Of a stretch of DNA of 64,000 bases, positions 1-23,708 are shown piece after piece (position 1 is the first letter of the stretch; each line of letters opens with the position of its first letter). The DNA is taken from IMG/VR virus record IMGVR_UViG_3300021431_000083; one strand, 5' to 3'. Under the pieces are notes generated by a model. The model was not told the origin of the DNA. It did not search any database and saw only the letters and a program-made list of their open reading frames with translations. The position numbers and the translations under genes are program-made. The DNA comes from a virus (taxonomy: Duplodnaviria; Heunggongvirae; Uroviricota; Caudoviricetes).

Positions 1-167
1 CAGGCTTAACCTTGCGCTCACGCGGCTTGGACTTGGCCTTCTCCGCACGATCCTTCAGGAACTCAACTGCGTCAGTTACGTCAAACTCGATCTCAGGCTC
101 AGCACCCTCCAGGATGGCGATGGTAGCCGCAAACTTCTCAGCGATGGTGATCTTCTTCTCGGTCATA
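1..167 (-). CDS. hypothetical acidic protein; 5' part only, gene continues past the window start. N-terminus MTEKKITIAEKFAATIAILEGAEPEIEF...
   Basis: ATG at 165-167 (read on minus) preceded by an AAGGAG-like RBS. No stop through the window edge. About 58% GC with GC3-rich codons, unlike the rest of the window. Confidence 0.5.
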
Positions 168-289
168 ACAATCTCCTTGTCTGCTCTTACGAGCGGTCTC
201 GTTTTGGAAATGAAATTTCTTTTTCACTTCCTGGGAGGACGTCCCACAAAGGGGTTCCTTTCTTATCTCTCCCTTTTCCTTACATATAT

Positions 290-319
290 ATTATATCATA
301 TTTTTCTTTCAGCCGTCAA
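290..319 (-). promoter_or_regulatory. consensus sigma70-type promoter module: TTGACG, 18-nt spacer, TATAAT, then ATATATGTAAG
   Basis: Read on the minus strand. Confidence 0.5.
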
Positions 320-396
320 GTTTTATTTTTAAGCTTCTGAAAGAAAACTGATATGTAAGAATTTGAGTTATTTTCTTCTCTCTTTCTTACAAATAT

Positions 397-426
397 ATTA
401 TAGCATAAATATTGGGCAGCTGGCAA
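397..426 (-). promoter_or_regulatory. consensus promoter module (TTGCCA, 18-nt spacer, TATAAT)
   Basis: Same motif family, in tandem with the previous one. Confidence 0.45.
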
Positions 427-761
427 CTAATTTTTTATTCCAAGAGAGTTGAAAATAAAAATCGTGTGCGGGACTCGTGCGGTGCAGACGTTAAAAAATT
501 TTTAGGACTCGATGTCGGAAATTACTTGACAGCAGCTGTTAATATGTGCGCACCCAAGTCCCTTGGTGTGAGTAGTTCAATTTAAGAAATCTTATTATTT
601 CCTTGACTTTTCTTTGTTTTCATAGGCCATTAAACACACATTAATGCAATGCCGCACAAACTCCGCAATAGTCATACTTTTTTGTTCAGCAAATTTATCT
701 AATCGTTTTTTCATAGTTGGAGTAACCGCAACATTAAGTTGAATACTTTTTCTTTCAGGCA

Positions 762-1382
762 TTATACCTCTCCTTGTTCATTATAATCAACTAATACACA
801 ATTATCATTAAAACTAAAAGCTATTAATTCATATCGACAACCTCTTTTAATTTCATTATGATATTTAATACGAATATAATTTCTATTTTCTAAAAATTCA
901 AGGATCGCTCCTATTTTATCCATAGTAAATCTTGTATATTCCCAATTCAATTCTTCAATGATTTTTCTTTTACTAAACATAAAATTAGTATACAAATTAT
1001 GATACTGACGAGATTTAATTTTATACTTTAAATAACAATATACTTGAATAATTTCTATATCAACTTTATTTTCTGCAAAATGCCAAGCTATATCATTATG
1101 GACAGATACAAAACGTTTATGACATACAAAATTTTCATTAGGAATATATCCGCATCCTTCATGAATTAACATTCCTTCATGAAGTAAAGCAATAATATTT
1201 TTATCTGTTAATTCTACGTTAAAATCATCTTTATAAATTTTAATTAATTCATATTTTTTAAATGAAATTTTTTCATCTCTTTCTAAAATCTCATTCAATA
1301 ATCCTATATAAAACATTTGTTGAAAATTAAAACCATTATATGAATCATTATCCATATAAACTAAACATTCGTTCTTTCTCAT
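762..1382 (-). CDS. hypothetical protein (206 aa)
   Basis: Intact ORF in the track. TAA stop. Same strand and operon-like packing as its neighbours. Confidence 0.6.
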   Translation of the reverse strand: MRKNECLVYMDNDSYNGFNFQQMFYIGLLNEILERDEKISFKKYELIKIYKDDFNVELTDKNIIALLHEGMLIHEGCGYIPNENFVCHKRFVSVHNDIAWHFAENKVDIEIIQVYCYLKYKIKSRQYHNLYTNFMFSKRKIIEELNWEYTRFTMDKIGAILEFLENRNYIRIKYHNEIKRGCRYELIAFSFNDNCVLVDYNEQGEV

Positions 1383-1385
1383 TAT

Positions 1386-1973
1386 TTACTCCTTCACATA
1401 GATAACCTTTGGATGATCATCTATGTTATCGCCATCCATTTTAATATATCCTCTGTCAACAAGCATTTCTACACCATGCCGCAATCGTGGGATGGTTTTT
1501 GAACTTGAACTAGAATATTTACCTTCATTAACAATATTTATTAAATACAAATAATAACGATTTTTAAAACAAGTAAAACCATTTCTTAATATAATAAAAT
1601 CATATAAAGCATAAGGCTTATCTTTATTATTTTCTCCAAAATCTATTAAGGCAAGTTCTAAGCTTGTTGCTCTAGTAATTAAACAATATTTACCTTCTAC
1701 TTTTGGAAATACATACTTATCATTTTGTTTTACTATAATGCCAGTATCATACATTAATTGTAAACTACTTTTCACTGTTGATACTTTCTTTTTAAGCATT
1801 TTAGCAATGTTACTTTGACTTCCGCAATGTTTAATATCAACATATTCACATTCATTTCCTACATCGTAAGAGGCTAATCCTTTCAGATACATATATACAT
1901 CTAAACCTTGAAGATTATTTCCAAATACTCTTCTTTCACATGGAATGGCGGTACTATATTCTTTACCAACCAT
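1386..1973 (-). CDS. hypothetical protein (195 aa); possible DNA-binding or initiator protein next to the iteron array
   Basis: Intact ORF, TAA stop. Its upstream intergenic region carries 21-bp-spaced direct repeats. Confidence 0.55.
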   Translation of the reverse strand: MVGKEYSTAIPCERRVFGNNLQGLDVYMYLKGLASYDVGNECEYVDIKHCGSQSNIAKMLKKKVSTVKSSLQLMYDTGIIVKQNDKYVFPKVEGKYCLITRATSLELALIDFGENNKDKPYALYDFIILRNGFTCFKNRYYLYLINIVNEGKYSSSSSKTIPRLRHGVEMLVDRGYIKMDGDNIDDHPKVIYVKE

Positions 1974-2013
1974 AACTATTCTCCTTTTAAATTTTCTATG
2001 CAGAAAATTTAAA

Positions 2014-2066
2014 CTATATAAAAACTATATAAAGACTATATAAAAGCTATATAAAGACTATATACT
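2014..2066. repeat. five CTATATAAA-like direct repeats at about 11-bp spacing (AT-rich element)
   Basis: Seen directly: ctatataaa, ctatataaag, ctatataaaag, ctatataaag, ctatatac. Confidence 0.6.
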
Positions 2067-2080
2067 ATATATGTTACTCC

Positions 2081-2196
2081 AATTTCGTCCATTTTATACT
2101 CCAATTTCGTCCGCCAAGCAGTTAATTTCGTCCGTTGAGCAGTTAATTTCGTCCATTTGCTAGTAGAATTCGTCCGTTTACTAGTTAATTTCGTCC
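2081..2196. repeat. iteron array: six AATTTCGTCC direct repeats at 20-22 bp spacing. One copy is degenerate (AATTCGTCC).
   Basis: Repeat starts at 2081, 2103, 2124, 2145, 2167 and 2187. The extended unit is nnCAGTTAATTTCGTCC. The last copy overlaps the 3' end of the RHH gene. Confidence 0.7.
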
Positions 2197-2334
2197 ATAT
2201 CTAACAGATAAAATATATCTTAATAGCTCACTTTGACTCATATCTTTTTCTTTTGCCTCTTTAACCAACGCATCTTTTAAAAAACGTGGCACTCTTGCGG
2301 CAATACGTATTTCATCTTTTTTATTTTCCATCAT
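2185..2334 (-). CDS. ribbon-helix-helix (CopG/Arc/ParG-like) DNA-binding protein, 49 aa (MMENKKDEIRIAARVPRFLKDALVKEAKEKDMSQSELLRYILSVRYGRN)
   Basis: Not in the ORF track because it is under 60 aa. Strong RBS GGAGG 7 nt upstream. Typical RHH beta-strand plus two helices. TAA stop. Confidence 0.6.
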   Translation of the reverse strand: MMENKKDEIRIAARVPRFLKDALVKEAKEKDMSQSELLRYILSVRYGRN

Positions 2335-2474
2335 ACCTCCTTTTTCCCATTTGGGAAACAAAAATTGAATAAATAAAAATAGGGCTATAAAAGCCCTATT
2401 TAACTTTCTATTATATATAATTTTAAGCCTAGATTCCTAACTCAATTTTGTTAAATAACTATAAAAAATTTTAA

Positions 2475-2852
2475 CTAATAATCATACATAGTACAAATAT
2501 GATATCCATAATCACTAATATCAGTATCCCAATCAGTAAAGAACTTTACAGCTTTACTAATATCTTTAGCCCGAGTCTTAACCTCCTCCATGTTTTCGAG
2601 ACTTAATTCATCCCCAGACTCACCTAGAAAGATACCGAAAATAACCCTATCAGAATACCATAACTGATCATCTTCAACAAACACATATTGACCATATTTA
2701 TGATGTTCCATAGCCCACTCAATAGGATGAATATCCTCATTATCAACAAGCACTGTGCGGCCGTCCCTGTCACGGTAAGAATCTACTTGCGGCATCTGCG
2801 TAATATCATCAGCTGTGGCCGCATACCCATAAATCAAAGCTCCCCACGCCAT
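2475..2852 (-). CDS. hypothetical protein (125 aa)
   Basis: Intact ORF, TAG stop. Confidence 0.5.
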   Translation of the reverse strand: MAWGALIYGYAATADDITQMPQVDSYRDRDGRTVLVDNEDIHPIEWAMEHHKYGQYVFVEDDQLWYSDRVIFGIFLGESGDELSLENMEEVKTRAKDISKAVKFFTDWDTDISDYGYHICTMYDY

Positions 2853-2854
2853 AA

Positions 2855-3049
2855 TTAATCCTCTTCCCTTACATAGAACTTAGCAATTTCATTATCACTT
2901 TCATTCTTACAAACAATATAAGTAAAACCAGGATTCAAAATTGCACTCTCTGCCGCACTCTTTAAAGCATCTATCTTTCTGGGTGTAGACATTCGTATAG
3001 AGAGCATTTCACCAAACATCCCTCGCAGCACAAAATAAATATCTTCCAT
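2855..3049 (-). CDS. hypothetical protein (64 aa)
   Basis: Intact ORF, TAA stop. Confidence 0.45.
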   Translation of the reverse strand: MEDIYFVLRGMFGEMLSIRMSTPRKIDALKSAAESAILNPGFTYIVCKNESDNEIAKFYVREED

Positions 3050-3067
3050 TTCTTTCTTTCTCTTGGA

Positions 3068-3337
3068 CTACCAACTAACTCTATATATCTTTCTACCATT
3101 CGTAGCTAACATTTTAAATGGTTTAACTTTATAACCAAGCTGAACGAGTTTTGCAATTACTTCTTGCTCTACAATAAAATCTCCACACTCAGCTCCGCAA
3201 AAATTCATACCATATCGTCCATGCTCAATTGCTATTAAAATATATCTAAATAAAGTATCAAGCACCATTGAAACTTGTTTATCTAAATCAATTCTAACCT
3301 TAGTAGTTTGTTGATTAGCTTCTGCCGCAGTCAACAT
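3068..3337 (-). CDS. small protein, paralog 1 of a 5-member tandem family (N-term M-x-T/S-A-A-E/Q/D-A, central LGYKV, C-terminal W)
   Basis: Intact ORF. Ends TGG-TAG, where the TAG sits inside the RBS TAGGAGAG of the next cistron. Confidence 0.6.
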   Translation of the reverse strand: MLTAAEANQQTTKVRIDLDKQVSMVLDTLFRYILIAIEHGRYGMNFCGAECGDFIVEQEVIAKLVQLGYKVKPFKMLATNGRKIYRVSW

Positions 3338-3347
3338 ATTAATTTAC

Positions 3348-3599
3348 CTACCAATTAATTACATATATAGGGCAACCATGCTTCTGAAATTCTTGCTTAA
3401 CCACTTCATACCCTAAATTTTTAAATTCTTGTACCATAAAATCTTCTAGTTCTAAATGTTCAACAATAAAAAGTAAATAATCTTTACCTTTTAAAGCTTG
3501 CTCTTTAATCCAAGGAGATAACTTTTCAACATTTTCTTTAGCTTTTGCTCTACTAACAGAATCATCAGTAATTTTACGAGCTTCTGCGGCACTTATCAT
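3348..3599 (-). CDS. small protein, paralog 2 of the tandem family
   Basis: Same architecture: MISAAEARKI... NLGYEV ...W, then TAG. Confidence 0.6.
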   Translation of the reverse strand: MISAAEARKITDDSVSRAKAKENVEKLSPWIKEQALKGKDYLLFIVEHLELEDFMVQEFKNLGYEVVKQEFQKHGCPIYVINW

Positions 3600-3608
3600 A
3601 TTACTCTC

Positions 3609-3869
3609 CTACCATTGAATATAGCAAATATTATCTTTCCAAAAATCAAAACTAACTTTATAACCAAGATCTCTTAATACATGAACTATGGGCATACGAG
3701 TATCAAAAGGATAATTAGAAAGATCAAGATCATATTTACAATAACCTTTATTAGCGTCTGTTTCAATACTAATAAGAATACCCTTCACGTATGATTTTAC
3801 TCGTACTTCATCTTTATTTTTCTTACTAGCTTCCTGAGAAATTTTATGAGCTTGTGCGGCAGTTAACAT
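3609..3869 (-). CDS. small protein, paralog 3 of the tandem family
   Basis: MLTAAQAHKI... DLGYKV ...W, then TAG. Confidence 0.6.
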   Translation of the reverse strand: MLTAAQAHKISQEASKKNKDEVRVKSYVKGILISIETDANKGYCKYDLDLSNYPFDTRMPIVHVLRDLGYKVSFDFWKDNICYIQW

Positions 3870-3878
3870 TAAATTCTC

Positions 3879-4157
3879 CTACCAACTAACAACATACAAG
3901 TTTGGATTCAATGAAAGATTATAAAAAAATCCTCGCTTTTTAACGTTATAACCAAGATTTTCTAGTTTACAAATCACTAATTCACGAACCTCTTTCGGAC
4001 AATAATCAAGATCAATAGAACGTTCATGAAAACCAGCATTAGCATCGCTTCGTATTCCATAAAGAATACCATCAGCCATTCTTTTTGCATATTTTTCAAA
4101 ATAATCTTGTTCTCCAACATTTTGAGAAATTCTATGAGCATCCGCCGCAGTAAACAT
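3879..4157 (-). CDS. small protein, paralog 4 of the tandem family
   Basis: MFTAADAHRI... NLGYNV ...W, then TAG. Confidence 0.6.
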   Translation of the reverse strand: MFTAADAHRISQNVGEQDYFEKYAKRMADGILYGIRSDANAGFHERSIDLDYCPKEVRELVICKLENLGYNVKKRGFFYNLSLNPNLYVVSW

Positions 4158-4166
4158 TAAACTCTC

Positions 4167-4430
4167 CTACCAGCTAATAATATAAATACTATTACTAAAC
4201 CAAGTATACGGTCGAACCTTATAACCGAGGTCCTCTAGTTTATGAATAATGGGTATACGAATCTTTTTAGGATAATCTCTAAGATCAAGAGTATGCTGAC
4301 AATATCCGCAACCAGCATCTTTTCGTACTCCAACAAGAATACCTTCTACACAACGTTTTGTGTGCTTTTCAATTTCATCTACTTCACCAGCATTTTGAGA
4401 AATTTCACGAGCTTCTTTAGCAGTCAGCAT
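4167..4430 (-). CDS. small protein, paralog 5 of the tandem family. Start taken at the internal Met (MLTAKEAREI) that follows an RBS.
   Basis: The track ORF is 4167..4454. GGAAAGGA RBS lies ahead of the ATG at 4430. DLGYKV ...W, then TAG. Confidence 0.55.
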   Translation of the reverse strand: MLTAKEAREISQNAGEVDEIEKHTKRCVEGILVGVRKDAGCGYCQHTLDLRDYPKKIRIPIIHKLEDLGYKVRPYTWFSNSIYIISW

Positions 4431-4458
4431 AATACAATTCCTTTCCCTTAACAATTAT

Positions 4459-7609: not shown

Positions 7610-8784
7610 TATGACGCCTCTTTCTCTTGATTGTCAATAATATATTTGTTAACCATAGTAAACCTTAATGGCACTACTTCATTTTCTGCTTCAAGTGCGG
7701 CGATACGATCTAACAAACTAGCAATAGTATGCTCAGTGTTGTTTACATTAACAGTTAGGTCACCAGCTAATCACTCATTACCTTGTCAATCTAAAGTACG
7801 GGCATTAGAATATACCGAAGGAGTACCATTACCAATAATTTCTGCATATTTATTATTAGTGTCTCTTAAATTATACTTACCACTAACATGTTGATAATTA
7901 CCATTAGCTATTGTATAATAACCTTCAGCATGACTTGCTTGTCCGTCTGCTGTAGTGCCTACACCTTCAGTATGACTACTTGGACCATTGGCAATAGTGC
8001 CTGTACCTTCAGCGTGACTATAATTACCATTGGCTGTACTTGTCTGTCAAATTATTTTATTATCAAGATCATATATTTCTTCGCCGCCACCTTCAGCGTG
8101 TGAACTTATTCCATTAGCGATAGTACCTTCACCTTCAGCATGAGAATAAATACCATTAGCTATAGTATTGCTACCTTCAGCATGTGAAAAATTACCATTG
8201 GTTATTGCATAATTACCTTCAGCATGAGAAAAAACACCATTAGCTGTTGTAGTATTACCTTCAGCATGAGAAAAACTATTGTTAGCTTTAGTGGCATTAC
8301 CTTCAGCATGAGAAATATAACCATAAGCCATAGTGCCATTACCTTCGGCATGAGAAAAAGTACCATTGGCTACAGTATTGCTACCTTCAGCATGAGAGCC
8401 GGTTCCGTTGGCTTTAGTATAATGACCTTCAGAATGTGAACCTATATTATTAACTTCAGTATAATAACCTTCAGCATGTGAGCCTGTTCCATCGGCTTTA
8501 GTATTATAACCTTCAGCATGTGAAGAAACACCATCAACTATAGTATTGAAACCTTCAGCATGTGAGTTATTACCATTAGCAGTAGCATAAGGGGTCTGTA
8601 CAGAATAATCACCTGTTCCTCAGTCATAAGGGAGAACTGCATCATCCTGTGATACTCATCTGTTTATACCATTTTCTTCTTCAGATATTTCTTTCACAAG
8701 CGGCATCTTAACATTAGCTCCTCCGCCAGAGCCACCACCATAATTTTTATTTTTAATCATAGAGAGTGTTGCTAAATCCATCAT
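7609..8784 (-). CDS. tail-fibre or receptor-binding-like protein with 13-residue SHAEG repeats, 391 aa, needs code 4
   Basis: N-term MMDLATLSMIKNKNYGGGSGGG. Repeated xSHAEGxxTxAxG units. C-terminal GDLTVN region. Several in-frame TGA, including the one at 8047 that splits the track ORF. TAA stop. Confidence 0.55.
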
Positions 8785-12740: not shown

Positions 12741-12932
12741 TTATGCTTCACCCACATAGATTTGACTATAATCTGAACCATAATATACATCAAAATAATC
12801 ATTAAAATTTACGTTGTAAGCTACAGGATACAATGTCTTAGACATTTTCTCAATAGCTTGTGCGGGCGATGTGGCACAATGGTGACCTAAAAATTGCTCA
12901 TTTTGATAAATCTTATACTTCTTACCACTCAT
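12741..12932 (-). CDS. hypothetical protein (63 aa)
   Basis: Intact ORF. Confidence 0.4.
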   Translation of the reverse strand: MSGKKYKIYQNEQFLGHHCATSPAQAIEKMSKTLYPVAYNVNFNDYFDVYYGSDYSQIYVGEA

Positions 12933-12942
12933 TTATTCTCCT

Positions 12943-13905
12943 TTATCTTCCCATACTTTCAGGAAATTTTTTCCAACTAATTAAATTTTCAAGTTCCTCA
13001 ATCTTTTTGCGAGCTTGTATCAATTCAAGTTCAAGACTATTTGTTGTTATACCAGACTTTCCTTCAATTAATTCTTTGGTAAGACTACGGCTGATTAAAT
13101 CATAAAGAGTTTTATCCAAGAGAGAATCCATTGAAGGATCATTCTCATTAGGACAATCTTTGCGGAAATCATCAGCTATTTTAACAATGCTTTCCATTAA
13201 TTCATCTGCTTTAATTTCCGCTTGTTCTTTAGATAATCCCCATCCATTCCGTTTACACTCCAAGAGAGAATCACGAATATTGCTATTTTTAAGATAAATA
13301 CAATCTTTATAAGGTCTACCTTCGATATACCACTTAATAAAATAATTAATGCGGGCTAGGTGTGATAACTGCTTTGGGTCATATCCAAATTTTTCAATCC
13401 AGGGCATGCGGCTTGGGTATTCATGGCACAAAGCATGTCGTTTCTCACTCGCCATACCTTTCATACAAGAAACTGCGGCATAAGGATTAATCCTTGCCAA
13501 CTCTTCCGCATTCGCCCGCAACCTATTCCAAAGATCATAATACTTATTGTTTACAATAAAATAATCAGTAAATAGAATCTCAACAAAATTAATATTTGAC
13601 TTGCGGAAAATCTTAAAGTACTCCCGCACATCCTTACAATCAACATGCTCTTGGTTATCTGGCATTTCAAGAGTATGGCTAATTGGTTTGTGGTTAAGTA
13701 CAATATCTTCTAACGAAGGAATAACTAATACTTTAGAATCAATATCAGACTCCGCATCAGCCATATTGTAATTTTGACTCCCCTGTAAACAAATAACAAA
13801 CCAATCTTTGTTATAAGTAGTTATATAATGAAAAAGATGTTCATGCAAACGTTTATTAATGTCAATATCATTTAAATATGGCATTACTATCTCCTTTAAA
13901 AGCAC
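12943..13905 (-). CDS. pol-beta-superfamily nucleotidyltransferase-like protein
   Basis: G-S-x(11)-D-x-D signature: GSQNYNMADAESDIDSKV. TAA stop. Confidence 0.45.
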   Translation of the reverse strand: MLLKEIVMPYLNDIDINKRLHEHLFHYITTYNKDWFVICLQGSQNYNMADAESDIDSKVLVIPSLEDIVLNHKPISHTLEMPDNQEHVDCKDVREYFKIFRKSNINFVEILFTDYFIVNNKYYDLWNRLRANAEELARINPYAAVSCMKGMASEKRHALCHEYPSRMPWIEKFGYDPKQLSHLARINYFIKWYIEGRPYKDCIYLKNSNIRDSLLECKRNGWGLSKEQAEIKADELMESIVKIADDFRKDCPNENDPSMDSLLDKTLYDLISRSLTKELIEGKSGITTNSLELELIQARKKIEELENLISWKKFPESMGR

Positions 13906-14078
13906 TCATCAAAGAATACATATAATCCATAAAAAAGTGCTATAATTATAATAATATCCAGTATTATTCCAACAATTATAAGAAAAATAACATTCGTTAA
14001 TATGGCATAGGTAAATAAAGGAATTAGTATAAAAGTTATAATAGTACAAATTAATGCTTTTATATTAATTTCACTCAT
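13896..14078 (-). CDS. small hydrophobic membrane protein (60 aa)
   Basis: Almost entirely hydrophobic: ICTIITFILIPLFTYAILTNVIFLIIVGIILDIIIIIALFYGLYVFF. Confidence 0.45.
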   Translation of the reverse strand: MSEINIKALICTIITFILIPLFTYAILTNVIFLIIVGIILDIIIIIALFYGLYVFFDECF

Positions 14079-14458: not shown

Positions 14459-14486
14459 GAATAATCCTTAACGAGCGTATTAATAA

Positions 14487-15437
14487 TTATTTAGTAGTAT
14501 TAACCATTGGCGTTGAATTCTCTGGAACAACTACAAGGTTTCCCTGTGCACCAATTTCTTTAAGAGCATCAATATAATGTTGCTGAATAACCTTATCACT
14601 TAGAGAATCATTAAGAATCTTATTAGCATCAGCTTCACCTTGCGCTTGAACTACCTTAGTTTGTGCTTCAACTTCAGCAACAGACTTTTTATTTTCAGCT
14701 GTTTGCTTATCAATTTCAGCTTGCTGTGCCTTAGTATAACTTTCATTGATATTGTCAGGATATTCTACGTGCTGAACATTTACCTGTTCAATAACTAAAC
14801 CATAGGGCTTCCATTTCTTTTCAAGAGCTTTCCAAATAGCATTCACGAACTCTTCACGTGCGGTTAGAATCGTAATTGTATCAAACTGACCTGCGACTTG
14901 GCGTGGAACCGCACGAATATCAACCGCACAAATAGCCTTTACAAAGTTTTCTTGAGTTCCATAATTTACATATAAATCTTCTGCCGCTTCTGGATCAAGT
15001 GAATAGTTAACTTGAACATCTACAACAGCTCTTGCACCACCACGATCATTTACGATAATACCAGAGCCATTTGCGGAACCACCTTCAAATTGCTCTTCTT
15101 CTGTTTCACCCATGAAAGAAAGAATGTTATTACGAATATCATAACGGGTAATTTCTTGCCAAGGAGCTTTAACACCGAAACCAGCTTCACTATCATGTCC
15201 AGCTAGCTGACCGCCCCAATTACGAAGAACAACAACCTCTCCAACAGATTGTGTATAAATACAAGAACCAAAAATAAGAACAACACCAAGAATAATTGGA
15301 ATTAAGCTATACATCTTGGGCGGTGTAATTTGTCTTGTTCTTGTTTCTCCATAAAGTTCATAAGTTTCTGTTTTACCAAATAAGACCGCACAAACAATAC
15401 CTGCGATTAGAATAATAATACCAAAAATTGCTAGCAT
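14487..15437 (-). CDS. SPFH/band-7 (HflK/C, stomatin, prohibitin-like) membrane protein
   Basis: N-terminal TM helix, SPFH core, then a coiled-coil tail (QQAEIDKQTAENKKSVAEVEAQTKVVQAQGEADANKIL). Confidence 0.6.
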   Translation of the reverse strand: MLAIFGIIILIAGIVCAVLFGKTETYELYGETRTRQITPPKMYSLIPIILGVVLIFGSCIYTQSVGEVVVLRNWGGQLAGHDSEAGFGVKAPWQEITRYDIRNNILSFMGETEEEQFEGGSANGSGIIVNDRGGARAVVDVQVNYSLDPEAAEDLYVNYGTQENFVKAICAVDIRAVPRQVAGQFDTITILTAREEFVNAIWKALEKKWKPYGLVIEQVNVQHVEYPDNINESYTKAQQAEIDKQTAENKKSVAEVEAQTKVVQAQGEADANKILNDSLSDKVIQQHYIDALKEIGAQGNLVVVPENSTPMVNTTK

Positions 15438-16702: not shown

Positions 16703-16796
16703 TGCGGAAGATGCAAGATTTGAACTTGCACTAGAATTCTCGTCCTAGGCTACGCATTAGCAGTGCGACACTTTACCATTCAGTCAATCTTCCATA
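16703..16796 (-). tRNA. tRNA-Ser(GCU), type II with a long variable arm
   Basis: Acceptor GGAAGAT/ATCTTCC. Anticodon loop CTGCTAA. T-arm GCAAG-TTCAAAT-CTTGC. Confidence 0.6.
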
Positions 16797-17100
16797 GAAA
16801 ATATCGCGGGTGGCGCCTTTACGCACTTTATCAGGACTCGCAACCTGCCGCTGGAAAACCCGCTTCTTTTGGTTCACCGGAGAAGCTCTTTGCCTATGAT
16901 TACAAACCGGTTTATAATATTCTCGGAGGGTCTACCATTTACACCCTAACTCGCTTACCGAGTTCGCATGAGCTTCAGCATTCAATTAGATCTGTCACCA
17001 TCTTTATGGCGCTTTCTTTATACCACTTATCATGTGGCTGCGGTGACTAGTACGCATTTAGGAAAAGAAAGCATAAGAAAACCCTCCTACTCAGTAATTA

Positions 17101-17175
17101 TATAGTCTGGAGTCGAACCAGTGTCTCTCTGGGCATAACCATAAGCGCTCTACCGTTAAGCTATCTCTATAACAC
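17101..17175 (-). ncRNA. tRNA-like element (D-arm GCTTAACGGTAGAGC, T-loop TTCGACT). No canonical acceptor or anticodon pairing found by hand.
   Basis: Partial cloverleaf only. May be a pseudo-tRNA, a split tRNA, or part of a larger structured RNA. Confidence 0.3.
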
Positions 17176-17400
17176 CTTTCGTTCGCTACTTACCCCGTCG
17201 GACTTTCGCTACACACCTAGGTTTTATTAATGTGTCTGCAGGTGTATTAGACACTCCAGCAGCTTTTTACGTCTTCACTTTATTTGGACAGCTACCTTCC
17301 GCAGTAGTATGGCGACATGACTTTCGTTGAAGAGGACTGCCGCAAGCGAACATTATACACCAATGATTTTTATCTTCCTGGTTCCATCACCCTTCACAGA

Positions 17401-17470
17401 CAGCCAGATTGGACTCGAACCAATACCCTAGCCCTTGCGGGCCGATGCTGACCAATTACACCACCAGCTA
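17401..17470 (-). ncRNA. tRNA-like element: acceptor with G-U pairs, T-arm ATTGG-TTCGAGT-CCAAT, but a GCCC-GCAA-GGGC GNRA hairpin where the anticodon arm should be
   Basis: 70 nt. Not a standard tRNA. Confidence 0.3.
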
Positions 17471-17871
17471 TCTCCAGTTTACTTTCACCTGTGCTATGAA
17501 TGTTTTTAGAGCGCCATTATTTCTATAGCGGAGGCCAGTGGTACAAACATCATAACCATATCTTCCCGCTTGATAGTTTAGTTTGAAAGGACTATCAACC
17601 TTATGTGAGAATGGAAAACCCATCTCTTTCGCACTTCGTTTTAGAAAACGAATAATTAAACATTCTTACCTTCGACTTAGGTTTACTCGGTACGTGCCTT
17701 CTCGTTGTATCCCGACCAATTCCTGTGGTAGCTACTCCACACTCACGTTTTTCGCTATGGGTACCTCTTCCCCACCCGCGTCTAGGCCGTCTCTCTGAGC
17801 AGTTTCTGCAGTCATACTCTCAGTTGATATTGGCGAGAATGTTTAACTTTCCCTTTTCTTTATATATATAT

Positions 17872-17912
17872 TATAACATATTTTTTATTCAGTTGTCAAG
17901 TTTTATTTTAAG
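17872..17912 (-). promoter_or_regulatory. consensus promoter module (approximate). It points into the noncoding island and tRNA-Ser.
   Basis: atatattataacatattttttattcagttgtcaa. Confidence 0.45.
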
Positions 17913-17992
17913 GCTTGGTTATTTTTCCCTTTAAACTAACCGCCCTTCTACAGGACAGTGACTGATTCGAACAATCATCTCCCTTACCTTAT

Positions 17993-18030
17993 ATATATAT
18001 TATAGCATAAAAATTGAACAATCGTCAACA
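17993..18030 (-). promoter_or_regulatory. consensus promoter module (approximate), in tandem with the previous one
   Basis: atatattatagcataaaaattgaacaatcgtcaa. Confidence 0.45.
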
Positions 18031-18113
18031 AATATTTTTAAACAAGTCTTGCCGCGCTTAAACGATCAGCCCACAAGAGGACCGAGCCTGAGTCGAACAG
18101 GCATTTGTTTATA

Positions 18114-18740
18114 TTACCAAGCTACATAATAATCAGTAATACCTTCATTACAACCACTATCAGATACAATACAAGTACCTTTACTACCTTCAAAAGTAGT
18201 ACCTTGCGGCATATCACTAGCCGCAACTACATAATATCCTTCGTCAGTACGATAGAATCCTTCATCATCTACTGTCCATTGGTCAGTATCTTGATGATAA
18301 AGAACATTAGATGAATAATATGTTTCTGTGCGGCCATCATAATAGTTAACGCCAGACTCTTGAGTTAAACCAGTACCATCACTATATTCTTGACCTTGAG
18401 TAACAACATCAGCAGGTTCTTCTTGAATAGTATCAACAGACTCTTCTTGAACATCAATATCAACAGATTCTTCTTGAATAGGCTCTGTTGATATTTCTTG
18501 AACGGGGTCTGCCGCAACTTCTGATACTGTTGTTTCTACTTTTGGAACACTATATTTTTTAGCTTTCTCCAAGAGATCAACCATATCTTTATTTGTTACT
18601 GTTCGCGGTTCAGCAATATCTTCTATATTTGAAAACTCAATTTTAGCTTTCTCTTGGACAATCTTTTGCGGTGAAGAGACACAGCCAATGTTGAACACAC
18701 ATAACACAATCAAACTTATAATGATGATTCGTTGCTTCAT
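18114..18740 (-). CDS. putative lipoprotein (signal peptide plus lipobox NIGC)
   Basis: N-term MKQRIIIISLIVLCVFNIGCVSSP. Acidic low-complexity central region. Confidence 0.55.
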   Translation of the reverse strand: MKQRIIIISLIVLCVFNIGCVSSPQKIVQEKAKIEFSNIEDIAEPRTVTNKDMVDLLEKAKKYSVPKVETTVSEVAADPVQEISTEPIQEESVDIDVQEESVDTIQEEPADVVTQGQEYSDGTGLTQESGVNYYDGRTETYYSSNVLYHQDTDQWTVDDEGFYRTDEGYYVVAASDMPQGTTFEGSKGTCIVSDSGCNEGITDYYVAW

Positions 18741-18897
18741 TTATACCTCGTTTTTATGATTGTAATAAAAATCAATTATTTTACGAATAAAACTATATAT
18801 TGTTGTATCTTGACTTCGTACATCTTCTGATATTTTATCCATTTGATCTTGTCTTATTCAAAGTTCAATTGGAATATATTCATCTTCTCTTGACACT

Positions 18898-19083
18898 TTA
18901 AAATTTACCTCCACCAGAACTTCTAAATCCATTCGTTGTATTAATTTGAATTATAGCCCCGCAAAAAGGACAGTAGGCTTCTTTAAGAATATCACCATGT
19001 CAATAAACAGTTCTATAATCTTCAGGTGCGGCCATGAAAGACTTGCCGCATTTATAACAATTAAAAATAGTATTTTTATTCAT
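18898..19083 (-). CDS. small zinc-ribbon protein (CxxC ... CxxC), 61 aa, needs code 4 (one TGA)
   Basis: MNKNTIFNCYKCGKSF ... YW(TGA)HGD ... CPFCGAII... AGGTGA RBS. Confidence 0.45.
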
Positions 19084-19312
19084 TATTATCACCTGTAGAA
19101 TCTGTTTCTATGACCGGTTCTGAAGATTCTACCACTTGTTTTTCTGGGCCATATACCATTTTATGACATGTCGGGCATGTATATGAGTTCTTATCAGAAA
19201 AAGGATTATTAGAAATTAATTCTACTTCAGTTACAGCAAACTCACATCCACAATAATCACAGTTAAATATATACTCTACGTTTGGAATAGTACCTTCTTT
19301 AATAATTCTCAT
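19076..19312 (-). CDS. small zinc-ribbon protein (CDYCGCEF ... CPTCHK)
   Basis: Intact ORF, TAA stop. Confidence 0.5.
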   Translation of the reverse strand: MRIIKEGTIPNVEYIFNCDYCGCEFAVTEVELISNNPFSDKNSYTCPTCHKMVYGPEKQVVESSEPVIETDSTGDNNE

Positions 19313-19491
19313 TATCGAATCTCCTGACCAGTTTCTTTATTAATAATAGCATATGTTTCTACTCTTCTAAATTGATTGCACACAGGGCAAACGGCTGAAC
19401 GAGGATTCTCTGATTCAAAAATTATATCGCAATTTTTACAAAGCATTTTGTATTTATAAGGACTTTCTTTCTTTTTGAAAAAATTAAACAT
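19312..19491 (-). CDS. small zinc-ribbon protein (CKNCD ... CPVCNQ), 59 aa
   Basis: Hand translation MFNFFKKKESPYKYKMLCKNCDIIFESENPRSAVCPVCNQF... Start and stop overlaps of the TAATG type on both sides. Confidence 0.4.
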   Translation of the reverse strand: MFNFFKKKESPYKYKMLCKNCDIIFESENPRSAVCPVCNQFRRVETYAIINKETGQEIR

Positions 19492-19679
19492 TAGTGTTTC
19501 TTTCTATGATTAAATCGAATAATAAAGTAAACTGCAGCGCCAATGATTAAAATACCATCAATAATATACAGCACAATAACACCAATCCCTCCTGTTGAAG
19601 GAAGTTCTGCAGCGTATGCGGTGATAGGAATGATCATTAAACACATCACTGTTAATAAAATAGTTCAAAATTTCTTCAT
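19491..19679 (-). CDS. 62-aa secreted mini-protein made of a signal peptide plus an LPXTG-type sorting signal (LPSTG, hydrophobic span, RFNHRKKH tail). Needs code 4 (TGA at codon 5).
   Basis: MKKFW(TGA)TILLTVMCLMIIPITAYAAELPSTGGIGVIVLYIIDGILIIGAAVYFIIRFNHRKKH. AAGGAG RBS. Confidence 0.45.
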
Positions 19680-19783
19680 AATCTCTCCTTCCTGCAATAA
19701 TATTTTCTCTATTATATATAAAATTATATCACAAATGATTATAATTTTTTGTTATTTGGCAGAATTGATTATAAAAGAAAGAA

Positions 19784-20284
19784 TTATGCCCATTTCGTAG
19801 TATCATAAACATAACTCATTAAACCTGATTGATCGGTATGATCTTTTGAAACAAGTAAGTAACCATCCCAAGGAGCTTGTTGTGCAACATTTTCATATGG
19901 TGTTGGTGTATTATTATAAATAATAAGTTCGCCTTCAACATCTTCTGTTGTATTTCTAACATCAACAGGACAAAACATTGCACGAAAACGAGTACCTACA
20001 TTTTTTCCAAGACTGATAAAATATCTATGCCCGCTTTGAATTTTATAAATATCGGTATAAGTATTTGATAAGTCTTGATATACCCACTGAGAATTATTCT
20101 CGATGTAGCCACCTTTGTAATCACGTTCAACTGGAAAAAGTGCCATTGTTGTATTTATACCAATTACTTTTTCTCCATTAGCGCCATATGCGGTAACACC
20201 CTTCAACATTTGTTCTTCTGAAACTGTAGCATCTGTTAAATCAACGAGTACTTGATCTCCATAATAAACTTTATTTACTTTCAT
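19784..20284 (-). CDS. hypothetical protein (166 aa)
   Basis: Intact ORF. Confidence 0.5.
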   Translation of the reverse strand: MKVNKVYYGDQVLVDLTDATVSEEQMLKGVTAYGANGEKVIGINTTMALFPVERDYKGGYIENNSQWVYQDLSNTYTDIYKIQSGHRYFISLGKNVGTRFRAMFCPVDVRNTTEDVEGELIIYNNTPTPYENVAQQAPWDGYLLVSKDHTDQSGLMSYVYDTTKWA

Positions 20285-20288
20285 GATA

Positions 20289-20582
20289 TTATCCTATCTT
20301 AATGGTAATGCCGCCAGCTTCATTAAAGGTCTTTTGATAAGGAATACCTTCTACAATAACTCTGGATAAATAGTTATATTCTTTATCTGGGGTAACCGTT
20401 TGTTTTAAGATAGACGATGTTATTGTTTTAATTTGTGTTTTAATAGAATCTGAAGGTACACTAATTAATTCTTTATTAACTAAACCTAAATTACCCTCTA
20501 AATTTTGTAGTCGTGTTATTGAACCATTTAAAGACTTGGCATCATTAAGATAACCAGTTAAATTAATTTTATTTAAACTCAT
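20289..20582 (-). CDS. hypothetical protein (97 aa)
   Basis: Intact ORF. Confidence 0.45.
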   Translation of the reverse strand: MSLNKINLTGYLNDAKSLNGSITRLQNLEGNLGLVNKELISVPSDSIKTQIKTITSSILKQTVTPDKEYNYLSRVIVEGIPYQKTFNEAGGITIKIG

Positions 20583-20583
20583 T

Positions 20584-20931
20584 TTAATTTACCTCTGGAG
20601 TTAATGTGAATATACCAGAAATGAAAGTATCCACAGTACCATCTTCTTTTGTAAGTTCAATTTCATAAACATATCGTCCAAAAGCAAGATTCTTTGTTTC
20701 TGCGGATTCTAGTCTTAAAATAAGAGTATCATTCGGAATCATCTTTAAAATTAATGGTTCTTTATCGAGATACCGTTCTCTTTTACTGTCCATAGTATTG
20801 TGCTTTAAAGCAAAATAGATTATATCCCCAGAATCAGGAATATAATCACTACCATCTTGTTTAATATTTACTTGTACAATTAAAGTGTCTCCACGAGTAA
20901 GACTAATATTATTATTTTCAATAGTGTACAT
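20584..20931 (-). CDS. hypothetical protein. Start moved to the internal Met (MYTIENNN) to avoid overlap with tRNA-Arg.
   Basis: The track ORF 20584..20961 overlaps the tRNA. Confidence 0.4.
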   Translation of the reverse strand: MYTIENNNISLTRGDTLIVQVNIKQDGSDYIPDSGDIIYFALKHNTMDSKRERYLDKEPLILKMIPNDTLILRLESAETKNLAFGRYVYEIELTKEDGTVDTFISGIFTLTPEVN

Positions 20932-20950
20932 TTTACCTACCTTAATTGAC

Positions 20951-21027
20951 TGGCACCGCATATAGGACTTGAACCTATAACAAAGTAGTTTAGAAGACTA
21001 CGGCTCTTCCTCTTGAGCTAATGCGGC
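20951..21027 (-). tRNA. tRNA-Arg(UCU)
   Basis: Acceptor GCCGCAT/ATGCGGT. D-arm GCTC-AAGAGGAA-GAGC. Anticodon arm GTAGT-CTTCTAA-ACTAC. CCA encoded. Confidence 0.65.
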
Positions 21028-21036
21028 TTATTATAT

Positions 21037-21113
21037 GGCACCCGCAGTCCGAATCGAACAGACGCCTTCTTGATTTGGAGTCAAGCTATACTTCCAATTA
21101 TACGACACGGATG
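21037..21113 (-). tRNA. tRNA-Trp(CCA). The 5' side is irregular and the acceptor needs three G-U pairs.
   Basis: Anticodon arm CTTGA-CTCCAAA-TCAAG. T-arm GTCTG-TTCGATT-CGGAC. CCA encoded. Confidence 0.5.
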
Positions 21114-21121
21114 TTTATTGT

Positions 21122-21197
21122 TTGGTACCGAGCATGGGCCACGATCCCACATCTCCGACATTAAGAGTGTCGCGCTTTGCCAATTAAGCTAACTCGG
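21122..21197 (-). tRNA. tRNA-Lys(CUU)
   Basis: Acceptor ACCGAGT/GCTCGGT. Anticodon arm CGACA-CTCTTAA-TGTCG. Unusual T-loop ATCGTGG. Confidence 0.55.
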
Positions 21198-21200
21198 TAT

Positions 21201-21464
21201 TGGTTGCCTGGACGGGATTTGAACCCGCAACTAATGGATTACATACCACTACTATTTTCATAGCCATTTCGTTTGTGGTCTGGACTTTATCTTCACCATA
21301 TTTTAAAACTTAGGCGGCTCGTGTAAAGTCTCTACACACGGTTTCCCTTGCTCGGTATTACCATTTTACAGGTTTCACCGACTTAGCGAGCTTATTCACT
21401 TATAAGTTTCCTTATAAGGCTTCCAATCGAAAGTCCACTACGCTTCCGTTGCGTCACCAGGCAA
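21201..21464 (-). tRNA. split tRNA gene, probably tRNA-Lys(UUU). 5' exon about 21432-21464, 3' exon about 21201-21241, separated by an intron-like insertion of about 190 nt in the anticodon loop.
   Basis: 5' half: TGCCTGG-TG-ACGC-AACGGAA-GCGT-A-GTGGA-CTTT. 3' half: TAA-TCCAT-TAGTT-GCGGG-TTCAAAT-CCCGT-CCAGGCA-A-CCA. Acceptor and anticodon stems pair only across the insertion. Confidence 0.5.
21242..21431 (-). other. putative group I intron in a tRNA anticodon loop
   Basis: The 5' exon ends in U and the insertion ends in G before the 3' exon. It contains AAGATAAAGTCC, close to the group I P7/S element AAGATATAGTCC, plus GGGAAACC and GACTTTA elements. Confidence 0.45.
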
Positions 21465-21950
21465 TATCTTATCAAAATCATAATCTTTAAAAAATTTTAT
21501 CCCTGAAGTTTGTCCATTTTTAGTTGGTTCAATCCTTAAAGAAATAGTTTGACAACTACCAATATCTTTAATTGGTACTAGAGCAATTATATCTCTATTT
21601 TGATTATAAAATACAAAATAATCTACATCTTTTTCATAAGTATCTAAAGACTTATTTGTAGTATGATTTTTAGAACTTCTACAATAGCATCTAATACTTC
21701 CATTAGCTTCTTCATTTGCGGTTTTTACTTGGATACGATTTAGTTTACCACCAAATTCAGCAATCATATCATAACGTTCATTGTCTCCTCAAGGAAGAGC
21801 TACTGGAATATTACGACGTTGAAATTCAAATAACGCTTTAGCTTCAGAAATATTACCTTTAGTTTTACTATTCATAATTACCACACTTTCTCCACACTCA
21901 CTAATAACCGACCAAACAGGTGGTGTGGATTCACTTTTCAATAAGCTCAT
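21438..21950 (-). CDS. PD-(D/E)XK nuclease-like protein, 170 aa, needs code 4 (one TGA). Its 3' end overlaps the tRNA 5' exon.
   Basis: Motif ALPW(TGA)GDNERYDMIAEFGGKLNRIQVK (D ... E-x-K). Lies between tRNA-Asn and the split tRNA. Confidence 0.45.
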
Positions 21951-21982
21951 GACTTCTTATCTATTTTGGTCGGATATTTAAC

Positions 21983-22058
21983 ATGGCTCCCAGTACTGGA
22001 TTCGAACCAGTATAACGACATTAACAGTGTCGCGTCCTGCCGTTGAACGAACCGGGAA
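21983..22058 (-). tRNA. tRNA-Asn(GUU)
   Basis: Acceptor TCCCGGT/ACTGGGA. D-arm GTTC-AACGGCA-GGAC. Anticodon arm CGACA-CTGTTAA-TGTCG. T-arm ACTGG-TTCGAAT-CCAGT. CCA encoded. Confidence 0.65.
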
Positions 22059-22098
22059 TAAAACTAAAGTCTTTCTGGACTTTATTAAACAAGCATAT

Positions 22099-22183
22099 AG
22101 CTACCCTGTGTCGCGGGGGTCGGATTCGAACCGACGTTGATGCCGACTTATGAGGACGGTGAGTAACCACTACTCCACCCCGC
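22099..22183 (-). tRNA. tRNA-Met or Ile2 (anticodon CAU)
   Basis: Acceptor CGCGGGG/CCCCGCG. Anticodon loop CTCATAA. T-arm GTCGG-TTCGAAT-CCGAC. Slightly long variable region. Confidence 0.5.
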
Positions 22184-22194
22184 GTCACGAGGTG

Positions 22195-22407
22195 CTAATC
22201 ATCATCATAATTAAAATAATCTTCTGGATGCAATAAATAATCTATATATTCACTTGCTTCTTCATATGTATCAAAACTACCTATAACTCGAAATCTTGGA
22301 GAATATATGTCATGAATACTGCGGACAGTATAACAGCCACAATAAAAACCATTAATTTGTTCATCACAAACAATATATTCTTTAAGCATGTTATTTCCTT
22401 TTAACAT
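22195..22407 (-). CDS. hypothetical protein (70 aa)
   Basis: Intact ORF with a consensus promoter upstream at about 22405-22448. Confidence 0.45.
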   Translation of the reverse strand: MLKGNNMLKEYIVCDEQINGFYCGCYTVRSIHDIYSPRFRVIGSFDTYEEASEYIDYLLHPEDYFNYDDD

Positions 22408-22409
22408 TT

Positions 22410-22445
22410 ATATTATATCATATTAGCTTAACAATAGTCAAGTTA
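22410..22445 (-). promoter_or_regulatory. consensus promoter module (TTGACT, 18-nt spacer, TATAAT)
   Basis: Read on the minus strand. Confidence 0.5.
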
Positions 22446-22449
22446 ATTT

Positions 22450-22812
22450 TTATTCATTATAAGTATAAGTTACTTTTTCAGGAATCCATAAATATGGCCA
22501 TCCAATAAAATCGTCTAAAGTAACAACAATAAAGAAATCTTTTCCAACTTCTTTACACAATTGCGGTAAAATTACACTATGCATGTAATGATAATGTTCA
22601 CTTTTTTCTTCTTCACTCATATTAAAAAAATTACTGTCTATATCATATTCAAAATAATCTTCGTCATAGTATTTTCCGCCATGCCATGCTTTAAAACGCA
22701 TATATGGAATTTTAACAGTAACTAACATAATTCTCCTTTGGTCGCGGAGGGTGCTAAATATATTGCCATTTATATCCATAAGCAGTTTTTCTTTTTCCTC
22801 TACACACTCCAC
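22450..22812 (-). CDS. hypothetical protein (120 aa); start uncertain because it overlaps the next gene
   Basis: Intact ORF. Confidence 0.4.
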   Translation of the reverse strand: MECVEEKEKLLMDINGNIFSTLRDQRRIMLVTVKIPYMRFKAWHGGKYYDEDYFEYDIDSNFFNMSEEEKSEHYHYMHSVILPQLCKEVGKDFFIVVTLDDFIGWPYLWIPEKVTYTYNE

Positions 22813-23365: not shown

Positions 23366-23423
23366 CTCTTCTCCAAATTCTTATTATAACAAAAGTATCA
23401 TCACTTTTGGAGGTAGTGTCTAT

Positions 23424-23499
23424 GGTATCAGCAGCGGGCTACGATCCCGCGTTTCTACCTTGAAAGGGTAGTGTCCTAGTCCAACTAGACGATGCCGAC
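23424..23499 (-). tRNA. tRNA-Glu(UUC)
   Basis: Acceptor GTCGGCA/TGCTGAT with G-U pairs. Anticodon arm CTACC-CTTTCAA-GGTAG. T-arm GCGGG-ATCGTAG-CCCGC. CCA encoded. Confidence 0.55.
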
Positions 23500-23502
23500 A
23501 TT

Positions 23503-23575: not shown

Positions 23576-23576
23576 T

Positions 23577-23651: not shown

Positions 23652-23708
23652 ATATCAGATATTAGTATTAACCATTACGAACCACGTGGAGGTTTCTGAT
23701 TCTCGTAA

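Follow-up and report, generated by a model that had tools for sequence, protein, structure and literature searches.

A candidate iteron-type replication origin within an exchangeable cassette of a large rumen phage

Organization of the repeat locus

The DNA analyzed here, referred to as the window, is a 64,000-nucleotide stretch of a tailed phage (Caudoviricetes; IMG/VR record IMGVR_UViG_3300021431_000083). Close to its first letter, two families of phased direct repeats lie between a gene for a 49-aa ribbon-helix-helix (RHH)-like protein, RHH49, and a gene for a putative 195-aa winged-helix protein. Judged from its sequence, the locus is most likely an iteron-type replication origin, a kind of element that is already known and of which this rumen-phage example would be new. 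All genes in this part of the window are on the minus strand, and the features are given below in the direction of transcription.

763..2409, minus strand: whole exchangeable cassette, allele A, with terminator, RHH49, iterons, AT-rich repeats, palindrome and the 195-aa and 206-aa genes
2377..2401, minus strand: intrinsic-terminator-like hairpin and T-run, ending the upstream operon
2343..2358: palindrome TTTCCCA-NN-TGGGAAA (AA centre in the window), adjoining the RHH49 ribosome-binding site
2185..2334, minus strand: RHH49, 49-aa ribbon-helix-helix-like gene with a GGAGG ribosome-binding site and sub-threshold RHH family matches
2081..2196, minus strand: array of six iterons in phase, reading GGACGAA(A/T)TT on the transcribed strand and starting on the + strand at 2187, 2166, 2145, 2124, 2103 and 2081
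2064..2091, minus strand: sigma-70-like promoter candidate with a 16-nt spacer between −35 TGGACG, which is inside the last iteron, and −10 TATAGT
2014..2071: AT-rich tandem repeats, candidate DNA-unwinding element, CTATATA at 2014, 2025, 2036, 2047, 2058 and 2065
1986-1997/2002-2013: perfect 12-nt palindrome TTTAAATTTTCT-GCAT-AGAAAATTTAAA, adjoining the AAGGAG ribosome-binding site of the 195-aa gene
1386..1973, minus strand: putative 195-aa winged-helix protein, candidate initiator (origin-binding protein), with weak winged helix-turn-helix (HTH) matches at residues ~45–90
762..1382, minus strand: 206-aa orphan protein, co-inherited with the cassette
595..762, minus strand: RHH55, second RHH protein (NikA-like/CopB-like), 55 aa, outside the swapped cassette

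On the + strand, AATTTCGTCC occurs exactly at 2081, 2103, 2124, 2145 and 2187, and is not found again without mismatch in the 64 kb. The sixth member of the array, at 2166, is the variant GAATTCGTCC, which carries two mismatches and has the core TTCGTCC in common with the exact copies; successive copies are spaced by 22, 21, 21, 21 and 21 bp. An earlier note on this DNA, made from the sequence alone, had placed six iterons at 21-bp phasing here, which holds for the position of the array but not for the exactness of the sixth copy or for the one 22-bp spacing. With up to one mismatch allowed, the iteron 10-mer matched the window 11 times against 3.96 ± 1.9 times in shuffled sequence, a count that 0 of 100 shuffles reached, and TRF scored the iteron repeats at 83 and 67. 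The copy at 2187–2196 (GGACGAAATT on the transcribed strand) covers the three terminal codons of RHH49 (G-R-N) together with one base of its stop codon. The overlap with the 3′ end of the RHH gene that the same note had reported is thus present, but the iteron concerned is the first, not the last, in the direction of transcription.

The second family consists of CTATATAAA (TTTATATAG on the transcribed strand), found exactly four times at + strand positions 2014, 2025, 2036 and 2047, followed by the truncated copies CTATATAC at 2058, 11 bp further on, and CTATATAT at 2065, another 7 bp on. TRF assigned these repeats a period of 11, 4.9 copies and a score of 87. Five repeats at 11-bp phasing had been noted before; the period stands, and the count becomes four exact and two truncated units. 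Only three 60-bp segments of the 64 kb are less stable than the AT-rich repeats (z = 2.9).

Iteron origins are described as having 2–7 iterons of 17–22 bp with phase-dependent cooperativity, an unwinding element with repeated 13-mers (four of them in RK2) and a winged-helix Rep protein (PMC4980987). The six copies in the window agree with the definition of at least two direct repeats of ~17–22 bp in helical phase (PMC4980987), and an adjacent AT-rich unwinding element of short tandem repeats is present at the sequence level as four to six CTATATA units of 11 bp.

Among the accessory elements, of which the two palindromes and the terminator are not in the earlier note, the perfect palindrome in front of the 195-aa gene folds as an RNA hairpin at −8.2 kcal/mol (z = −2.2) and could be an operator or a hairpin in the 5′ untranslated region. 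The RNA fold of the palindrome at 2343..2358 is not significant (z = −0.8), and this element is a candidate RHH operator. The terminator hairpin has a fold energy of −13.6 kcal/mol (z = −2.7). The promoter candidate is a consensus match only (9/12), of a kind not more frequent in the region than expected from shuffled sequence.

Three other explanations of the array were rejected. Units this short do not suit a CRISPR-like array, for which no cas genes were seen either; if translated, the repeat would have to use the + strand open reading frame (ORF) 2071–2163, which is without a ribosome-binding site; and for an RNA gene, Rfam gave nothing real in window 1–4000.

Selection on the repeat cores

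The same cassette is present in a sister strain (loci L013, L014 and L015) with 84% nucleotide identity over 3.1 kb. Loci L007–L011 are 100% identical to the window and so hold no comparative information. Between the window and L013, the repeat-bearing spacer 1974–2184 is the best conserved feature, with 95.3% identity compared to 91.3–93.6% for the four coding sequences, in which third codon positions diverge by 10–16%, and to 56% and 88% for the other spacers. In the interval 1974–2196, 126 of 223 positions belong to iteron cores (six), TATATAG cores (six) or palindrome arms, and these received 0 of the 10 substitutions (hypergeometric P = 1.8e-4, or ~3e-3 with adjacent changes counted as single events). 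On this sequence comparison, the repeat cores are under purifying selection, because substitutions avoid the cores and arms altogether and the spacer that holds them is the most conserved.

All six 10-nt iteron cores are invariant in both L013 and L015. The four substitutions in the array are all in spacers, three of them at the pyrimidine immediately 5′ of GGACGAA, and the TATATAG cores of the AT-rich repeats are likewise invariant in L013. Both palindromes are altered in L013 in the central spacer only: the loop GCAT becomes GTGT between the unchanged arms at 1986..2013, and at 2343..2358 the central bases 2350 and 2351 alone differ. The terminator is invariant. On the protein side, the recognition-helix segment VSTVKSSLQLM of the 195-aa protein is unchanged in L013, as are the iteron cores. 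The earlier note had regarded a lack of conservation of the repeats in related phages as evidence against its proposals; that comparison has now been run and the repeats are conserved. Chance or neutral tandem duplication is excluded by the same core conservation.

Proteins encoded by the cassette and its border

The 195-aa protein weakly matches the winged-helix families HVO_A0114 (E = 2.9e-4) and HTH_36 (E = 0.13) in Pfam, and TIGR01714, the N-terminal domain of a phage replisome organizer (E = 8.8e-3). An exhaustive HMMER scan of 1.84 billion cluster representatives returned the protein itself and one relative only, P0002, which has 211 aa and is 28% identical (E = 2.7e-4), giving a family of two members at 50% clustering. 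When the two-sequence profile and the 195-aa and 206-aa proteins were used in word-indexed searches, only the query proteins and P0002 were recovered. No related loci were obtained by searching viral and genome contigs with the 195-aa protein, and phages and plasmids gave nothing usable when searched by tblastn with the 195-aa protein, P0002 or RHH49.

P0002 has a stronger HTH_36 match (E = 7.7e-5), with its signal also at residues ~45–90, and matches phrog_3396, labelled ScpB, over residues 8–181 of 211 (E = 3.8e-7). ScpB is a tandem winged-helix protein. Comparison by hhalign of the N-terminal half of the 195-aa protein with its C-terminal half, and of the N-terminal half with the 206-aa protein, was not significant, nor was BLASTP of the 195-aa against the 206-aa protein. 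PDB sequence searches gave generic winged-HTH regulators only (E > 0.02). A defence system was considered and rejected; PADLOC on P0002 gave winged-HTH-level matches only. The 206-aa protein has no family match and no P-loop, homology searching recovers only the protein itself, and it is possibly an accessory or loader-like partner of the 195-aa protein.

RHH49 is plausibly a ribbon-helix-helix protein by sequence. The 49-aa gene described in the earlier note exists as an ORF, for which public gene callers give 48 aa from the second ATG. Its best Pfam matches, RHH_1 (E = 0.036; 14.5 bits versus a cut-off of 20.5) and CopG_antitoxin (E = 0.051), are both below threshold, and it matches the PHROG Arc-like repressor at E = 3.7e-3. 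In an AF2 model of moderate confidence, helices span residues 17–29 and 34–46 and the N-terminal segment is rendered as a helix; Foldseek ranks VapB, Arc and CopG first, all at the non-significant level of E > 1. RHH55 matches NikA-like proteins in Pfam (E = 5.6e-6; 26.9 bits versus a cut-off of 27), RepB-RCR_reg (E = 0.063) and the NCBIfam replication regulatory protein RepA model PRK13702 (E = 0.004). BLASTP of RHH49 against RHH55 was not significant.

A second locus with its own repeats

P0002 is encoded on L012, a 5.5-kb phage-like contig with a ThyX gene downstream. The region upstream of the P0002 gene (L012 2495–2710) contains a 20-nt perfect inverted repeat, three 12-bp AT-rich repeats and three 22-bp direct repeats, together with a consensus sigma-70 promoter (TTGACA-17-TATAAT). 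The order of AT-rich region, iterons, promoter and gene is the classical order of rep loci, and the two arrays are the sole strong tandem repeats in the contig. Although the repeat sequences differ from those in the window, the two-tier layout is common to both, with periods of 22 and 12 bp in L012 compared to 21 and 11 bp in the window. Homologous candidate initiators therefore have their own iterons at the same place, at two independent loci.

The small gene upstream of the L012 array encodes a helical protein that is not an RHH protein. The assumption behind all three options of the earlier note, that the RHH protein binds the iterons, is accordingly unsupported, though such binding may still occur: L012 has iterons without an RHH gene, and an RHH homologue is found elsewhere, in the alternative cassette described below, without an adjacent array.

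Two alternative cassettes at one position

In the close relatives L016–L023, the flanks are 78–88% identical to the window and positions 763–2409 are replaced by a second cassette. Breakpoints located by blastn against L018 and L017 are at window 2410 and 762, and the interior is exchanged as a block. This second cassette, allele B (L018 3127–4324; also in L017 and L019–L023), has a different terminator, a 53-aa RHH gene (RHH53), a 277–279-aa HTH protein and, in some strains, a 93-aa zinc-ribbon protein. RHH53 is 43% identical to RHH49 (E = 9e-16), scores 18.0–19.8 bits against RHH_1 (cut-off 20.5) and is without a phased array beside its gene. RHH55 is present beside both alleles.

Repeats of a different kind lie inside the allele-B HTH gene, in its central low-complexity part, as 13–16 copies of TACAAC at 9-bp spacing. 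Nine copies are read as Thr-Thr and four as Tyr-Asn, in two reading frames. Persistence of TACAAC across the change of reading frame indicates that the motif is constrained as DNA. The same part of the gene also has two inverted copies, after which AATGTA-type hexamers form an AT-rich run, and copy number varies between strains by whole units. BLASTP of the 277-aa protein against lambda O was not significant.

Two unrelated DNA-binding proteins thus alternate at one locus, each with a private repeat array and AT-rich block, a behaviour that would be expected of origin-initiator modules. The cassette has a GC content of 26–28%, compared to ~34% for the phage and 43–47% for the adjacent genes, and this low value fits a horizontally exchanged module. 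Tentatively, and as a possibility that we rate below the origin assignment itself, the locus may be a hot-swappable cassette of 'origin plus initiator specificity' in TGA-recoded ~140-kb rumen phages, in which allele A would be a plasmid-like replicon with an intergenic iteron array, an unwinding element and tandem winged-helix initiators of a hitherto unrecognised orphan family, allele B would have a lambda-O-like initiator whose gene contains the origin, and the same RHH pair would frame both.

Proposed mechanism and likeness to known systems

With moderate confidence, we propose that this ~140-kb phage carries, in the form of an exchangeable cassette, a self-contained, plasmid-style origin of the iteron type, which comprises an unwinding element and its own winged-helix initiator and is regulated by the RHH proteins. 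Monomers of the 195-aa protein would bind the six GGACGAAATT cores head-to-tail, the 21-bp phasing placing them on one face of the helix. The resulting nucleoprotein complex would strain and melt the adjacent TATATAG 11-mer repeats, where the replicative helicase would then be loaded. A filled array would also shut off synthesis of the 195-aa protein, because the candidate −35 hexamer is inside the last iteron. RHH49 upstream and RHH55 downstream would serve as CopG/CopB-like transcriptional regulators, their likely targets being the two palindromes by the ribosome-binding sites. Such a course of events agrees with the scheme published for iteron origins (PMC4980987). The assignment of proteins to DNA sites, strand opening, helicase loading and origin activity are all inferred. 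Of the three options listed in the earlier note (centromere, origin or operator), the origin is favoured by selection on the cores, the low stability of the AT-rich block, the L012 layout and the lambda-ori-like allele B, while the centromere is left without a motor gene.

The locus is closest in arrangement to iteron-controlled theta plasmids (pPS10, F oriS/RepE, R6K gamma/pi, RK2 oriV/TrfA and P1 oriR/RepA). Likenesses are the several ~20-bp direct repeats in helical phase, the adjacent AT-rich unwinding element of short tandem repeats, and a candidate initiator gene beside the origin with putative binding sites that overlap its promoter. Unlike those plasmids, the cassette has proteins outside Rep_3 and the other Rep families and no DnaA boxes, its AT-rich block is between the iterons and the gene, its palindrome is unrelated to the iteron core, and the module is flanked by two RHH genes within a ~140-kb phage. 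In the lambda system, the annotated ori has four 18-bp iterons inside the O gene at 20–24 bp spacing. The window resembles lambda in having iterons and then an AT-rich stretch in the direction of transcription, and in that origin and initiator specificity would travel as an exchangeable module; in allele B, moreover, the array and the AT-rich repeats are within an HTH gene, in the part that codes for the linker. However, homology to O is not detectable, the window array is intergenic, and the allele-B units are spaced by 9 bp compared to lambda iterons of ~19 bp. By analogy, the locus may be said to work like iteron plasmids or lambda ori; we choose this wording because the cassette proteins are not members of those protein families by sequence.

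A small RHH gene followed by a replication gene is also seen in CopG-RepB of pMV158, orf56-orf904 of pRN1 and CopB-RepA of R1. CopG is about the size of RHH49, and RHH55 weakly matches the RepB-RCR_reg and replication regulatory RepA models, below threshold. In these systems, what the RHH protein binds is a palindromic or pseudopalindromic operator at a promoter and not an array of six direct repeats. For pRN1, the replicon has been described as one operon of a repressor gene and a rep gene (PMC4234260).

Evidence against an origin and a competing region

Several results weigh against the origin assignment. All winged-helix matches of the cassette proteins are below curated cut-offs, and the single-sequence AF2 model of the 195-aa protein has a pLDDT of 31, which does not establish a fold. 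Rep_3, RepA_N and Phage_rep_O gave no match to the cassette proteins even at E ≤ 1, and hhalign of the 195-aa/P0002 profile against lambda O returned a probability of 0.1. Operators of classical Rep genes share the iteron core; the palindrome before the 195-aa gene does not. Between 1974 and 2420 there is no DnaA box, that is, no TTATCCACA-like site with up to one mismatch; the DnaA requirement of iteron origins is host-dependent (PMC4980987). Comparative support comes from two independent loci and one sister strain. The cassette is at the 3′ end of a long one-directional arm, and transcription becomes convergent ~3 kb on, just past window position 1. Cumulative GC skew peaks at this convergence, ~3 kb from the cassette, which is an unexpected place for a single bidirectional origin. 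The skew analysis recommended in the earlier note proved to be no locator, since skew just tracks the direction of transcription.

The convergence point itself holds a competing candidate, for the origin of the phage or for its genome ends, and this also counts against the cassette. On L007, in which window position 1 corresponds to 11973, a 1.1-kb non-coding region (12810–13950) is found where transcription converges. It includes the least stable 60-bp segment of L007 (13066–13126), strong TTGAC-N17-TGATATAAT promoters, and three direct and two inverted TCCACA motifs resembling DnaA boxes: TTTTCCACA, TTATCCACA and TTTTCCACC at 13577–13609, with inverted TGTGGA motifs at ~13793–13813.

Searches of wider collections with DNA were also performed. 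Blastn of window 400–3000 against phage and plasmid collections gave no match. The iteron-type DNA pattern found six unrelated loci in viral contigs (either D-E-I coding repeats of flagellin type or a repeat present twice in another element), unrelated 21-nt coding repeats among the matches listed for a loose form of the pattern in metagenome contigs, and, in genome contigs, mostly a dispersed palindromic 22-bp repeat of one Prevotellaceae metagenome-assembled genome (MAG), plus coding repeats. In that uncultured MAG (RUG733, ONXQ01...; L146–L222), ~60 dispersed arrays hold 2–5 units each. The RUG733 repeat, GGACGAAATTTTTTTC(G/A)(T/A)CTGC, includes the phage iteron 10-mer at the same period and has no other similarity to the window. 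MAG and phage apparently come from one habitat, the rumen, going by sample and MAG names only, and the presence of the 10-mer is probably a coincidence.

Alternative explanations

Of the alternatives to an origin, purely transcriptional control is the strongest, although we consider it rather doubtful. The phased repeats would then be an operator or enhancer array for the winged-helix protein, the RHH proteins or both, switching the 195-aa/206-aa operon without any role in replication, in the manner of PhoB/OmpR-type activators on direct repeats or omega-type RHH repressors. The overlap of the last iteron with a −35-like hexamer agrees with this, as do the −10-like hexamers supplied by the TATA repeats, but such overlap does not discriminate, because iteron origins autoregulate too. 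Similarly, the two palindromes adjoin two ribosome-binding sites and have conserved arms, and the four small DNA binders associated with the cassettes have regulator-type matches only (Arc-like repressor, transcriptional repressor and HTH families). Exchange of the whole block is also familiar from phage immunity regions, in which a regulator is swapped together with its operators. Against a purely regulatory array, six head-to-tail sites with an AT-rich block of low stability, found twice with different sequences at homologous genes, are the layout of an origin. The allele-B array, which is within a coding region, runs through two frames and is followed by AT-rich repeats, is of lambda type and would be odd for an operator. 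Furthermore, the iteron core is found nowhere else in the window, which leaves no regulon.

A packaging (pac) site is improbable. In this view, a small terminase subunit (TerS) would be encoded by the 195-aa gene, or in allele B by the 277-aa gene, and would act on repeats comparable to the P1 pacA hexamers or the SPP1 pac boxes. TerS proteins are small and very diverse, have an N-terminal (winged) HTH and often have their pac site in or beside their own gene; the position of the allele-B repeats inside a gene, and of the locus near the junction of two transcription arms, would suit this. However, no cassette protein has a terminase-small match in Pfam, PHROGs or NCBIfam, and their genes have no large terminase gene next to them; the sole P-loop ORF found in the 64 kb is beside the RNA ligase genes. 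The structural genes start >35 kb away, and a phased six-copy array with an AT-rich block differs from the known pac layout.

A partition centromere bound by an RHH protein (type Ib ParG/omega-like or type II ParR-like) for stable plasmid-prophage inheritance is very unlikely: an RHH gene does adjoin tandem direct repeats, as in pSK41/R1 parC-ParR, TP228 parH-ParG and the pSM19035 omega heptads, and RHH49 and RHH53 weakly match phrog_795, 'partition protein ATPase' (2.3e-3 and 1.4e-4), but no partition NTPase was found, RHH49 is a bare 49-aa fold without a tail for motor contact, and array and RHH gene are not co-inherited (allele B has the RHH gene without the array, L012 the array without an RHH gene). 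In type II centromeres (parC), the RHH protein ParR binds an array of tandem repeats, and the array is expected upstream of the par operon (PMC5016525), not downstream of the RHH gene as here. Motif searching found no ParA Walker box (KGGxGK[ST]) or tubulin signature in the 64 kb, a search that by itself cannot exclude an actin-like ParM, and neither a motif nor a family match for an NTPase is present in the 195-aa or the 206-aa protein.

Other features of the phage

The window comes from a large phage with 13–14 tRNA genes, tape-measure and tail genes and RNA ligases, and contigs that encode the 195-aa protein reach 140–141 kb. In the structural-gene half (37878–63560, minus strand), TGA is read as a sense codon. 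Reading it as sense gives stop-free frames of 2920, 1245, 2858 (tape measure) and 1133 aa with 39, 21, 17 and 16 in-frame TGA codons, respectively, and under the standard code 33 of 39 ORFs in 37–64 kb end in TGA, compared to 5 of 53 in 1–37 kb. The cassette genes all end in non-TGA stops and are unaffected by recoding. Stop-codon recoding of late genes has been described for gut phages (bioRxiv 10.1101/2021.08.26.457843).

The 13–14 tRNA genes form a cluster at 16704–24329 (minus strand). For the gene at 17399–17470, ARAGORN gives no anticodon and Rfam scores 31 bits; another, at 23505–23575, was found by Rfam and missed by ARAGORN. Beside the cluster is a full-length ROOL RNA (24991–25566, minus strand; Rfam RF03087, 334 bits, gathering score 99). 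A candidate RNA-repair set (26545–30344, minus strand), just upstream of this tRNA/ROOL region, includes RNA ligase genes at 27097–28362 and 29418–30344. Next to these, the sole P-loop ORF found in the window (26545–27039; GVPGSGKS) encodes what we would guess to be a kinase.

Five tandem paralogous genes of 83–95 aa (3068–4454, minus strand) match only PHROG families of unknown function; their products start with M-(L/F/I)-(T/S)-A-A/K-(E/Q/D)-A and end in ...W. Tandem repeats of 42 nt with a similar consensus, ACCTTCAGCATGAG..., are found at 8089–8580 (11.7 copies) and 38753–38996 (~3–6 copies) and would presumably be translated into 14-residue repeats of two different proteins. The opposite arm of L007 encodes two 228-aa paralogues (14485–15171 and 19552–20238, both minus strand), which match phrog_20187; their matches to a DNA polymerase exonuclease subunit family are weaker (1.3e-8 and 2.1e-7).

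Implications

The origins of large uncultured phages are almost never identified, and the window offers a conserved candidate origin of ~220 bp, short enough to be amenable to experiment, together with a candidate initiator that is without relatives in any annotated collection. Were the array merely an operator, the finding would be ordinary. If the locus is an iteron-type origin, it would define a new family of winged-helix initiators and a minimal rumen-phage replicon of ~1.6 kb, possibly of use as a vector backbone for difficult hosts, and the allelic exchange of origin-initiator cassettes would be documented in stop-codon-recoded phages. If the more tentative proposal of a two-allele origin cassette is also true, a new initiator family would be defined there as well, and large lytic-type phages would swap origin modules as lambdoid phages and phage satellites do.

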